Shown here one piece after another: positions 6,460 to 11,876 of a DNA stretch of 64,000 bases. This DNA comes from Dictyostelium discoideum (lineage: Eukaryota). Under the pieces are notes generated by a model, which was not told the origin of the DNA, did not search any database, and saw nothing but the letters and a program-made list of their open reading frames with translations. The DNA lies in contig CM000153.2 of the NCBI GenBank assembly GCA_000004695.1, positions 3,296,001 through 3,360,000 on the forward strand. Reading direction: 5' to 3'. Made by a program: the position numbers and the translations under genes. Numbering within the stretch: the stretch's first letter is position 1; the number at the start of each line of letters is the position of its first letter.

Positions 6460-8636
6460 TTATTTGATTATTTGTTTTGTTTTGTTTTTCATTTTTGAGA
6501 AAAGATCAATTTCAACAGCTTCACTTTTGTAATGACTACTCTGTTTGAGTTTAATTTGATTTTGGATGATATAGCCTACATTTGGTAAAGTAAGTAGTTT
6601 ATCAAATGTAGCGAATATTTCTTTTTGAGTCTTAACAGATGCTTTATTATTTTGGACATTATGTTTTATTTCTTCAACACTTGCTTTATATTCACTTAAG
6701 TGTTCATTGAGTTTTTGAATTAATTCTTGCGAGTTTTCAGAATTTTCCAATTGCTTTATTTGCATGTTGATATAATCTTCATAGTAACGATTAAATTTAA
6801 TTAATGAATGGTGCCACAAGAATACTGAAAAGTCAACAATTGCAGTCTTAATAGTATCATATTCTTCTTGGAATTGTATTTTTCTTTCTCCCATTTTTGT
6901 AACTAACAACTCCCTCTCATTAAATATTTCACTCTTTGTTCTTTGACCTATTGTTTTTTTATCAGTGCCTGGTAATTGATTGAGTTGAGGTGTTTCTTTG
7001 ATAGTAACTACTTGATGATCAAACCATAAACAAGGAAGTACTCCAGTGTTTGAACATTTTTTGCAAGTTCCCATCTTATTAATATTATCACACCAATAAA
7101 GTGAAGAATACCATTTTGGAGAAACAACATCAATGTTACAAGGATTATCGGTATTACTAGAGCATCCATTCTTTGTGCAAACCAATAGACTGTTTTCCAA
7201 TTTTTCCGCTATCACCACAGATACTGGAATGTATAATAATGATTCATCACCAATACTATTGTTCCTCAACTTTTCAGATTGTTGCTCCATTAATTTAATG
7301 TTGGTATTAATATTTGAAATACATGTTGACATTGGTTGAGCTAAATTGGAAATCATTGTTCTTGCATTATTTATACAAATTGTATTTGCAACATCATGTG
7401 GTTGAACTTTTGATATCTCTTCTAATAATCTTTTAAATTCTTTTGATGATCTATCCCAACTTCTACCAAAATCAAACTCATCATCTTCTGAAAAATTAGT
7501 TTCAATACCAGCAGTAGCATTATATTTTTTAACGGCTAAATAATTAAAAGATTCATTATCAAAACAAAATGTTTTTTCATTAGCATTTATTTCAATATCT
7601 GATTGATCTTTCATTTTTTTTAAATGATCCTCTAGGATGGCTCTTGTTGGACCTGGTTTATACATTGTACCTCTTGTATGAGTGAAACAAAAGAAAATAT
7701 TATCTTTTGCACTTGAATGTAAATGTAGTAATAATTGATTCAAACAATATTTGAATAAAACAGTGGCTCTAGTTTCATCTGGACGCATTAAAATACAAAT
7801 TGCATTTAACTTTTTTAATGATGAAATTTCGTGTAGGATATTCTCAAAATGTTTATTATCTTGCAATGTACCTTGTGGATCACCGACACCTGGAGCATCA
7901 ATTAAACAAAGTGTTTTACCATCTGGTAATTTAATTCTATATTGTCTTGAATACTGTGTAACTGAAGAGCCAATTTTGTAATCTTCAACATCTCCAAGTG
8001 AAAATTTATGAGTTTTATTTTCATCTTGAATTTCAATTTTTGAGGCAATTGTATAGATTTGTTCTAATGTTGCGTTTTCAAGTGCATCTTTTAAATTTGA
8101 ATACTCGATATAATTAACCACCATATTAACAAACGTTGATTTACCAACACCAGTTATACCAATTAAAAGTAGATAGATTGTATCCTTGTCATCATCAATC
8201 AAACCATTAACTTTATTAATAAGTAATGATGAATTTCCAATTGTTTTACCTCTATTTGATGAACAAGAATCTGGTGCTTTGGTTAATGGAAGTATTGAAT
8301 TTTTTAATATAGATAAATTTTCTTGAAATCCATTTGCTAATAAATTATATTCAAACTCATCATCTTTTTAAAATAATTTTAAATATATTAGTTTTTTTAT
8401 TTTTATTTTTATTTTATTTTAATTTTTTTTTTTATTTATTTTTTTTTTTTTTTTTTAAATTTTGTCTTACATTGTATAAAATTTTGGATCTCCCCAAAAT
8501 CTATATATCTTTCTTCTTGAGTTAATTTATTTTTAATGGTCACTCTGTTCTTAACATCATCTTTTGAAATTTCAAAAAACCTTCCGTTTGACTCCAAATG
8601 ATGTCTTAAAACAATGATTGCATAATCCAAATCCAT
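6460..8636 (-). CDS. P-loop GTPase, AIG1/GIMAP/septin-like (paralog A). Two exons join(8636..8471,8363..6460), about 634 aa, with a C-terminal Cys-rich module and a coiled coil.
   Basis: G1 motif LLLIGITGVGKST and G3 motif LIDAPGVGD. After switch II comes ICILMRPDETRATVLFKY...FFCFTHTRG, which resembles the AIG1-type hinge pattern. The small ORF 8436..8636 (MDLDYAIIVLRHHLES...) is homologous to the N-terminus of paralog B. It joins in phase (phase 1, T+AT=Tyr) through a GTAAGA donor at 8470 and a TTTTAAAAG acceptor at 8364. The Cys-rich block is CTKNGCSS...WYSSLYWC...GTCKKC...PCLWFDH. The C-terminus is heptad-rich. Confidence 0.65.
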
Positions 8637-9671: not shown

Positions 9672-11876
9672 TTAATTTCTTAAATCAACGATAATGGCTT
9701 CACTTTTCAAAAGATTATTTTGTTTAAGTTTAATTTGATTTTTAATGATATAACCTACCATTGGTAACTCGAGTAATTTATCAAAAGTCTTAAATATTTC
9801 TTTTTGAGATTTAACATTAGTTTTATGATTTTTGGCATTCTTTTGTTGTTCTACACTTTGTTTATATTCACCCAAATGTTCATTTAATTTTTCAATTAAA
9901 TCTGCAGAATTTGGAACACTCTCTAATGCCTTGATTTGGATGTTGATATATTTTTCATAGTAATGATTAATGTTTACCAAAGAATGATGATATAAGAATA
10001 CTAAGAAATCAACATTTGCATTCTTAATTATTAGATATTCATCTTCAAATTGTTTAATTCTTAATCTCATTTGTGATATTAAAATACTACTTTCTTTTTT
10101 TAATTCTTCTTTAGTCCTAATAATACCAACACCACCACCACCACCACCACCACCACCACCACCACCACCACAATTACTATTACTACCACATCCAAAATCA
10201 CTATTAATACCACTAATTGAATTATTTAAAGAAGAACTTTGTGAAAAAATTTTCTTTAGAGTTGGTATTTCTTCAACACAGATAAGTGAATGATCGAACC
10301 AAAAACATGGGATGGCACCAGGATTGTTACATTCTTTACATGATCCTAAGGTTTTGAAACTTTCGAGCCAATAAACTGAAGAATTCCATTCTTTTTGTGG
10401 TTCAAATTCTCTACATAGACTATTCGTACCACCTTTTGTGCAACCAATCTTTGTACAAATTAATTTATACTTTGGTAGTTTTTTAGATTCTACTGTGGTT
10501 TCTGGAATGTATAAAAAGGATTCATCACCAATTTTAATATTTCTTAATTTTTTAGATTGCTCTTCCATTAATTTAATGTTGGTATTTATATTTGAAATAC
10601 ATGTTGACATTGGTTGAGCTAAATTGGAAATCATTGTTCTAGCATTGTTTATACAAATTGTATTTGCAACATCATGTGGTTGAACTTTTGATATCTCTTC
10701 TAATAATCTTTTATATTCTCCTGATGATCTATCCCAACTTCCACAATAAACATTCTCATCTTCTCCTGAGAAATTAGATTCAATACCAGTAGTAGCACTA
10801 TATATTTTAACGGCTAAATAATTAAAAGACTCATTATCGAAAAAAAAAATTTTTTCGTTAGCATTTATTTCAATACCTGATTGATCTTTCATATTTTTAA
10901 AATGATTCTCAAGAATGGCTCTTGTTGGACCTGGTTTATACATTGAAGCTCTTGAACGAGTGAAACAAAAGAAAATATTATCTTTTGCACTTGAATGTAA
11001 ATGTAATAATAATTGATTCAAACAATAGTTGAATGAAATAGTGGCTCTAGTTTCATCTGGACGCATTAAAATACAAATTGCATTTAACTTTTTTATAGAT
11101 GAAATTTCGTGTAGGATATTTTCAAAATGTTTATTATCTTGCAATGCACCTTGTGGGTCACCAACACCTGGTGAATCAATTAAACAAAGGATTGTACCAT
11201 CTGGTAATTTAATTCTATATTGTCTTGATGTTTGAGTTATAGATGAACCAACTTTATAATCATCAATATCTCCAAGTTTAACTTTATAATTTTTATCAGA
11301 TCCTTGAATTTCAACATTTGTATCAATTGTATAAATTTGTTTTAATGATGTTGATTTTTGAATTGCATCTTTTAAACTTGAAAATTTTATATAATTAACC
11401 ACCATATTAATAAACGTTGATTTACCAACACCAGTCTCACCAATTAATAGTACATACTTTGTTTCTTTTTCATCATCTATTAATTGATCAATTTTATTTA
11501 ATAAATATGATTGTTCTGAATTTGGTAATGATGATGATGATGATGATGATGATGATGATGATGATGATGATGATGATGATGATGATGATGATGATGATGA
11601 TGATGATGATGATGATGATGATGATGATGATGATGATGATGATGATGATGATGATGATGATGGTGATGATGCTCCATCTATTATTAATTGTTCTGGTTTT
11701 TGTTGTCCGTTTGGATCCAAATTATTAATTTCATCAAAATTAACAAATTTCTCTTCAAGTGTTAATTTATTTTTTAGACAAACTCTTTTATTTTCATTAT
11801 CTTCTGTAACTTCATATAATCTATCATTCAATTCCAAATGTTTTTTGATTATTGATATTTTATTATTTATGTTCAT
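9672..11876 (-). CDS. P-loop GTPase, AIG1/GIMAP/septin-like (paralog B), intronless, 734 aa, with 48xSer and 13xGly homopolymers
   Basis: G1 LLIGETGVGKSTFINMV and G3 LIDSPGVGDPQG. The Cys-rich block CTKIGCTKGG...VYWLESF...GSCKECNNPGAIPCFWFDH is the same as in paralog A. The C-terminus is coiled-coil. The (TCA)n run at about 11528-11676 encodes the poly-Ser. Confidence 0.7.
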   Translation of the reverse strand: MNINNKISIIKKHLELNDRLYEVTEDNENKRVCLKNKLTLEEKFVNFDEINNLDPNGQQKPEQLIIDGASSPSSSSSSSSSSSSSSSSSSSSSSSSSSSSSSSSSSSSSSSSSSSSLPNSEQSYLLNKIDQLIDDEKETKYVLLIGETGVGKSTFINMVVNYIKFSSLKDAIQKSTSLKQIYTIDTNVEIQGSDKNYKVKLGDIDDYKVGSSITQTSRQYRIKLPDGTILCLIDSPGVGDPQGALQDNKHFENILHEISSIKKLNAICILMRPDETRATISFNYCLNQLLLHLHSSAKDNIFFCFTRSRASMYKPGPTRAILENHFKNMKDQSGIEINANEKIFFFDNESFNYLAVKIYSATTGIESNFSGEDENVYCGSWDRSSGEYKRLLEEISKVQPHDVANTICINNARTMISNLAQPMSTCISNINTNIKLMEEQSKKLRNIKIGDESFLYIPETTVESKKLPKYKLICTKIGCTKGGTNSLCREFEPQKEWNSSVYWLESFKTLGSCKECNNPGAIPCFWFDHSLICVEEIPTLKKIFSQSSSLNNSISGINSDFGCGSNSNCGGGGGGGGGGGGGVGIIRTKEELKKESSILISQMRLRIKQFEDEYLIIKNANVDFLVFLYHHSLVNINHYYEKYINIQIKALESVPNSADLIEKLNEHLGEYKQSVEQQKNAKNHKTNVKSQKEIFKTFDKLLELPMVGYIIKNQIKLKQNNLLKSEAIIVDLRN
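11528..11676 (-). repeat. Coding (TCA)~48 trinucleotide repeat encoding poly-Ser within GTPase paralog B
   Basis: The + strand reads (GAT)n. The antisense poly-Met ORF 11417..11728 is a by-product of this repeat. Confidence 0.85.

Follow-up and report, generated by a model that had tools for sequence, protein, structure and literature searches.

We analysed a 64,000-nucleotide stretch of Dictyostelium discoideum DNA (contig CM000153.2, positions 3,296,001 to 3,360,000; hereafter the window, with a G+C content of about 22%), in which two paralogous genes, here termed A and B, follow one another in the same orientation on the minus strand, both within positions 6460-11876. Their products are 57% identical over their full length and share one layout: an N-terminal domain of about 55 amino acids (aa) precedes a P-loop G domain, after which come long helices, a Cys-rich block and further helices at the C-terminus. 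The initial annotation, made from the letters alone, had described such a pair with a shared architecture, and the pair is real. We found that A and B are near-certain members of a widespread family of GTPase-like proteins, within which they form a diverged branch.

9672-11876, minus strand: gene A, the upstream tandem paralogue, a single-exon coding sequence of 734 aa plus stop (open reading frame list)
6460-8636, minus strand: gene B (DDB_G0285485), 689 aa; exon 1 at 8636-8471, intron at 8470-8364, exon 2 at 8363-6460 including the stop codon

A 734-aa product identical in sequence to that of gene A is called in a second D. discoideum assembly (GCA_054883475.1). The translation of gene B is 100% identical to XP_638084.1 / UniProt Q54N59, an AX4 entry named 'G domain-containing protein'. 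Its splice model includes a 107-bp intron (GTAAGA...AG), the position of which is the same in D. citrinum, D. firmibasis and D. cf. discoideum.

The G domain and the Cys/His module

The G domains and their motifs are placed as follows.

7495-8193, minus strand: G domain of B, residues 113-345, with the P-loop at 8134-8154 and G3 (PGVGD) at 7879-7893
7672-7692, minus strand: non-canonical G4 of B, FCFTHTR
7546-7563, minus strand: FDNESF motif of B
10773-11474, minus strand: G domain of A, residues 135-368, with the P-loop at 11415-11435 and G3 at 11157-11171
10950-10970, minus strand: G4 of A, FCFTRSR
10824-10841, minus strand: FDNESF motif of A

The P-loop GTPase motifs first read from the sequence, GxTGVGKST and LIDxPGVGD, are found in both proteins, as GITGVGKST and LIDAPGVGD in B and as GETGVGKST and LIDSPGVGD in A. 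The canonical G1 (GxxxxGK(S/T)), the switch-I Thr and G3 (DxxG) are all present (in B, G124-T132, T191 and D211-G214), and these columns are invariant or nearly so across 127 family members. Both proteins also score above the Pfam cut-off for MMR_HSR1 (28.5 bits listed for A), in agreement with their initial description as P-loop G proteins. At G4, the residues are T-H-T-R in B and T-R-S-R in A rather than (N/T)KxD. The family consensus at this site is F-x-F-T-(N/H)-x-R, with the Arg in 122 of the 127 members, and a 'CFDNESF' motif lies downstream. As a lead only, we note a resemblance of the FT(H/N)xR and CFDNE motifs to G4 and G5 of Toc and GIMAP proteins, which are degenerate in those families.

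The G domain had been placed nearest to AIG1, Toc and septin GTPases, a placement that stands at the level of the superclass. Scanned with Pfam, NCBIfam and PADLOC models, A and B gave generic P-loop matches only, and no family accounted for the C-terminal half or the N-terminal domain. AIG1 (PF04548) scores 17.8 bits against A (E = 2.2e-3; gathering score 27) and has no match to B at E ≤ 1, and Septin (PF00735) scores 17.7 bits against A (E = 2e-3; gathering score 26.2) and does not match B. AIG1 is above cut-off in the relative P0022 (30.3 bits) and in a cyanobacterial relative (30.4 bits), and it reaches E < 1e-4 in 20 of 38 long relatives, with a best E of 5.5e-16. A search of PDB sequences with B alone as query gave nothing useful (FtsY only, at E of about 0.1). 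Matches of the family profile to the PDB were limited to septins, IRGs and Toc33/34, all of them weak (E 3e-5 to 3e-2 for septins and IRGs), and those to septins span the P-loop and G3 only. By structural comparison the G-domain fold is nearest to GIMAP and Toc structures, at 13-20% identity. The septin/AIG1/Toc superclass is thus supported for the G domain, whereas assignment to AIG1 or Septin proper is not.

Comparison with these known systems delimits the likeness. AIG1/GIMAP proteins and Toc33/34/159 ('paraseptin') give the best structural matches to the G domain and conserve the P-loop, the switch-I Thr and the DxPG, whereas the C-terminal half of A and B is unrelated to the C-terminal helices of GIMAPs or to the membrane anchor of Toc proteins. 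Septins and IRG GTPases, the only other sequence-profile matches in the PDB besides Toc, share little beyond the P-loop and G3, and neither the septin-unique element nor the IRG helical domain was detected in A or B.

The remainder of the protein was modelled with AlphaFold2 (AF2), using 72 aligned relatives of B (predicted local distance difference test, pLDDT, 81.9; predicted template modelling score, pTM, 0.74). A second model of B residues 345-689 alone (pLDDT 81.6, pTM 0.77) agrees with the full-length one. The C-terminal half had no counterpart among the solved structures in the PDB.

7240-7494, minus strand: long helices of B following the G domain, residues 346-430, part of the stalk (AF2 helices 348-374 and 380-423, pLDDT > 90)
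6964-7239, minus strand: beta-hairpin and Cys/His block of B, a long hairpin of residues 433-451 and 505-520 with the block at its tip (AF2)
7015-7179, minus strand: Cys/His block of B, residues 451-505, of lower AF2 confidence (alignments, AF2)
6463-6963, minus strand: C-terminal helical region of B, residues 523-689 (AF2 helices 532-574, 582-595, 601-626, 635-646 and 652-663)
10239-10517, minus strand: hairpin and Cys/His block of A, the block being residues 474-529 at 10290-10457 (alignments)
9675-10238, minus strand: C-terminal helical region of A, residues 547-734

The block initially described as Cys/Trp-rich is present in both proteins in its elements C-x4-C, G(T/S)CxxC and PC(L/F)WFDH, but the Cys of its 'WY..YWC' element is found only in B, A reading WN..YWL. 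The 'long coiled coil' that was said to follow is borne out in so far as long helices are predicted there, although AF2 packs several of them with the helices following the G domain and models no free coiled coil. There are eight candidate ligands in B (C451, C456, C464, C480, C489, C492, C500 and H505), and A retains seven of these columns, Leu replacing C480.

In eleven columns of the alignment, Cys or His accounts for at least 70% of the 127 full-length members; B keeps eight of these columns and A seven. The ligand columns are conserved in 104-127 of the 127 members, six of them in 125-127, and follow the pattern C-x4-C ... C-H-x2-C ... C ... C-x2-C-x-(C/H)-x4-H-x-H. The A/B clade departs from this pattern by a deletion of about 17 residues that includes the central C-H, by replacement of the last His and by a seven-residue insert after CxxC, and seven ligand positions are invariant within the Dictyostelium clade. 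Loss of the cysteines among orthologues had been named beforehand as the observation that would speak against the block; they are conserved there and far beyond. The cluster at the tip of the hairpin would most probably bind two zinc ions in B, and the zinc ribbon initially suggested is plausible.

Family distribution and domain fusions

The combination of domains in A and B had been thought an undescribed architecture and a speciality of an amoeba, and neither claim survived comparison. In an exhaustive search of 1.84 billion representatives with a 580-aa query, relatives were found in 2,129 clusters at E ≤ 1e-3 and in 748 at E ≤ 1e-30, and at least these 748 combine G domain, stalk and Cys/His block into one unit as A and B do. 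Most of the best 150 clusters match residues 8-555 of the 580, a span that takes in the P-loop, the Cys block and the C-terminal helices. Because it recurs in hundreds of proteins, the layout is far beyond chance. Named relatives come from Dictyostelium species, Mucoromycota (Mortierella, Modicella, Glomeromycota), echinoderms, bdelloid rotifers, beetles, nematodes and one cyanobacterium, and D. discoideum itself has a further paralogue, DDB_G0276551 (35% identical). A scan of viral contigs found no relatives.

Many relatives carry the Pfam domain PF26633, which is probably DUF8206, since UniRef names one of them 'DUF8206 domain-containing protein'. BLASTP and phmmer alignments of B with relatives so annotated run from about residue 115 to residues 600-660, at 27-37% identity and E values of 1e-41 to 1e-68, and therefore amount to homology over the full length of the unit. 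The precomputed domain list for B holds PF01926 only, and the lack of PF26633 there fits a diverged module. Databases already list A and B as hypothetical proteins, and Pfam has an entry for the family under a domain of unknown function, so the claim of an unrecognized amoeba architecture was overstated. We found no paper in the literature on A or B, the PF26633 family, DUF8206, DUF7656 or a MACPF-GTPase fusion.

Of the 219 relatives fetched, 104 are stand-alone forms in which fewer than 150 aa precede the G domain, and 81 are extended at the N-terminus by at least 450 residues. Thirteen of 38 long members carry an N-terminal stonustoxin-type MACPF domain (MACPF_SNTX, PF24674) and 12 carry DUF7656. 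The MACPF part of these relatives matches the alpha and beta subunits of stonustoxin (SNTX) at E 1e-32, whereas a Pfam scan of A and B gave no MACPF match. SNTX (structure 4WVM) reportedly runs on into thioredoxin and PRYSPRY domains, not into a GTPase. Long relatives also have a second Cys-rich consensus upstream of the P-loop (CPxxxC...WxCxxC...YCxCG...C....H), which is probably DUF7656 and is not found in the Dictyostelium proteins. Compared with the PF26633 GTPases, including the MACPF_SNTX-DUF7656-GTPase fusions, A and B share the G motifs, 'CFDNESF', the hairpin and the core Cys/His columns, but lack the MACPF and DUF7656 domains, in place of which they have their clade-specific 55-aa N-terminal domain. 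They differ further in lacking the central C-H-x2 part and the last His and in the insert of seven residues after CxxC.

A single bacterial genome among 185,579 species representatives has a full-length copy. This is a Nostocales metagenome-assembled genome, the 701-aa protein of which is 32% identical and has the canonical Cys/His module. On its contig RDXV01000132.1 (genes 98-2347 and 4746-6851), the homologue lies about 2.4 kb from a divergent NB-ARC/TPR STAND NTPase gene with a sigma-70 region-4 helix-turn-helix (HTH), and three small open reading frames without a Pfam match lie in between. Eukaryotic contamination was considered as the source of this match and rejected, as the neighbours are bacterial (the NB-ARC/TPR gene with its sigma-70 region-4 HTH, DUF4351 and VanY).

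N-terminal domain, copy turnover and probable gene conversion

The N-terminal domain and the repeats that interrupt A are located as follows.

8472-8636, minus strand: N-terminal domain of B, residues 1-55, predicted as helix, three strands and helix (AF2 pLDDT 70-87)
11712-11876, minus strand: N-terminal domain of A, residues 1-55, 40% identical to that of B
11528-11671, minus strand: poly-Ser linker repeat of A, a pure trinucleotide repeat of 48 copies (Tandem Repeats Finder and translation)
10125-10171, minus strand: poly-Gly insert of A, a (GGT)n repeat of about 16 copies inside the C-terminal helical region

An N-terminal domain of about 55 residues had been noted in both proteins, and it is indeed present in each, without a Pfam match. 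Following the splice model, that of B is a separate exon 1. A local hmmsearch of 221 fetched relatives found it confined to the A/B clade of group-4 Dictyostelium. A profile search with the domain gave zero matches and missed even the source proteins, probably owing to a word-index limit for short queries. Identity with a double-stranded RNA-binding domain was considered, as the helix, three-strand, helix topology is reminiscent of one, and was set aside for want of sequence support. The linker between the N-terminal and G domains is predicted to be disordered, and in A it includes a run of 44 Ser residues. Neither the poly-Ser nor the poly-Gly repeat of A occurs in B, and both differ in the D. 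citrinum counterpart.

The order of a Trm112p homologue, A, B and the gene for a large beta-helix protein is kept in D. citrinum. In D. firmibasis (locus 5001-9230), two copies lie at the same place and both are more B-like than A-like, the one at the position of A, adjoining the Trm112p gene, being the closer to B. Orthology within the tandem cluster is therefore not one-to-one. In D. cf. discoideum (GCA_054859205.1, locus 3077-9400) there are three copies, of which the A-like one is 5'-truncated; in the third, the P-loop is frameshifted and the hairpin/Cys segment has truly been deleted from the DNA. The position of this third copy corresponds in the window to 6185-6460, an interval of only about 275 bp that leaves no room for one. 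Another D. discoideum isolate has a 442-aa paralogue (ACTFIW_002071) that is 77% identical to B and has an intact P-loop, but has neither the N-terminal domain nor any of the hairpin/Cys segment.

Of the neighbours in the window, the beta-helix gene on the plus strand (1334-6185) appears as open reading frames of 1066 and 605 aa in overlapping frames, which other assemblies show as a single gene (about 1555 aa). This gene has a beta-helix Pfam match and many hydrophobic segments, and is convergent with gene B, the two stop codons lying about 275 bp apart. Farther off, a tRNA-Gly(GCC) adjoins a tRNA-Asn(GTT) at 24060-24279 on the minus strand.

Similarity between A and B is unevenly distributed along the genes and is concentrated in one core tract.

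7224-8230 of B versus 10502-11511 of A, minus strand: core tract of probable conversion, 1,013 bp at 87.5% DNA identity (blastn)

Identity at third codon positions is 0.87-0.97 at B residues of about 196-415 and drops to 0.3-0.6 in both the N-terminal domain and the hairpin/Cys region. Over the core tract, A resembles B (86%) more than it does its counterpart in D. citrinum (76%); in the flanks the order is reversed. These patterns suggest that the core tract has probably undergone gene conversion between A and B, limited to the G domain and the first helices behind it, with the N-terminal domain and the hairpin kept distinct.

B is under purifying selection, with ratios of nonsynonymous to synonymous substitution (dN/dS) of 0.17-0.22 versus three relatives, and A is less constrained (0.53 versus its D. 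citrinum counterpart). The hairpin/Cys region is the fastest-changing structured part, with 68% identity between B orthologues versus 84-88% elsewhere, and its dN/dS of 0.18-0.28 is the highest of the structured parts of B in two of the three comparisons. At regional resolution, these values lend no support to diversifying selection on the Cys block, which had been considered.

One or both genes, and A especially, could on this evidence be decaying duplicates, with a conserved look maintained by conversion from B. The higher dN/dS of A would fit such decay, as would its long poly-Ser and poly-Gly inserts, its one ligand Cys fewer than B, the core tract itself and the state of the D. cf. discoideum copies, one truncated at the 5' end and another with a broken P-loop and deleted Cys block. 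However, the open reading frame of A is intact over 734 aa with all G motifs and seven ligand columns, two D. discoideum assemblies carry it without any difference, its dN/dS of 0.53 lies below the neutral value and B is clearly constrained. We consider decay improbable.

Possible function of the pair

In the unit common to the family, a septin/AIG1-class (TRAFAC) G domain is joined to a helical stalk with a long beta-hairpin that is predicted to project from it, and a Cys/His cluster sits at the hairpin tip. The G domains of Toc, GIMAP and septin proteins are activated by nucleotide-dependent dimerization. By analogy with these, nucleotide binding would drive dimerization or oligomerization of the G domain, and the stalk and metal-stabilized hairpin would transmit this assembly to the N-terminal part. 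In many fungal and animal relatives that part is the stonustoxin-type MACPF domain, which is pore-forming, whereas in the Dictyostelium A/B clade the 55-aa alpha/beta domain may act at the N-terminus as an adaptor or effector. That the G-DUF8206 unit is recurrently fused to a MACPF head speaks for a role of this unit in regulating or assembling an N-terminal effector. The biological role would most likely be cell-autonomous defence or another conflict function, and the patchy distribution, the bacterial copy beside a STAND NTPase, the turnover in copy number and the fast-changing hairpin resemble features of conflict and immunity genes. We infer metal binding, GTP as the ligand, nucleotide-dependent assembly and a defence role for A and B. 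Taken together, the proposition that A and B belong to a widespread and catalogued family as a diverged subclade without MACPF, and act as a nucleotide-driven assembly switch, possibly in defence, is in our judgement evenly balanced. The defence role taken separately is a tentative proposition, well short of even, and the link to immunity drawn initially from plant and vertebrate AIG1/GIMAP proteins is still an analogy for A and B.

Several observations weigh against this reading. Three of the eleven family ligand columns are lost in A and B (the central C-H and the last His), and a fourth is lost in A; metal stoichiometry may therefore differ or binding be weakened. An Arg stands in G4 where the guanine-specifying Asp is expected, so that GTP specificity is putative, and both proteins fall under the AIG1 and Septin cut-offs. 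Because A and B have no MACPF effector, the argument from fusion partners applies to them indirectly. A scan of an anti-phage defence library found nothing beyond a weak match to LeoBC from the P-loop to G3, no region has a dN/dS above 1 and hence there is no arms-race signature at the regional level, and the searchable literature yielded no expression, binding or phenotype data for A or B.

The proposed assembly switch can be extended into a more far-reaching version, in which G domain and DUF8206 would together form a nucleotide-gated trigger, ancient and horizontally mobile, for membrane-attack (MACPF) effectors in cyanobacteria, amoebae, early-diverging fungi and invertebrates, and would represent an undescribed class of innate-immune or conflict GTPase. 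The Dictyostelium pair would then be derived, its pore-forming head having been swapped for the 55-aa adaptor or effector, and the metal-tipped hairpin would be a recognition surface. We regard this extension as rather unlikely.

Two further explanations dispense with immunity. In one, A and B would be housekeeping GTPases for membrane remodelling or tethering, of the dynamin, atlastin or mitofusin type, with a G domain that dimerizes across membranes and a stalk that serves as a lever. As for a dynamin-like assignment, the LeoBC match covers only profile positions 40-134 of 601 and Dynamin_N reaches an E of 0.16. We hold the explanation to be unlikely. The other, a ribosome-assembly or RNA-associated GTPase (MMR_HSR1, YqeH or EngB type) that has a zinc finger as accessory domain, is very improbable, since MMR_HSR1 is a generic G-domain model, YqeH scores 25 bits versus a cut-off of 297, the distribution and MACPF fusions are unlike those of a translation factor and tandem copy number varies between close species.

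None of these findings demonstrates that A or B serves immunity in the amoeba. Should the G-DUF8206 unit prove to be a regulated assembly switch, septin/GIMAP-like GTPases that are physically linked to perforin-like pore formers in fungi, echinoderms, rotifers, insects and nematodes would become a class of their own, and Dictyostelium would offer a genetically tractable, MACPF-free system for finding out what the switch senses. The C-terminal half of A and B represents a fold without a solved representative.

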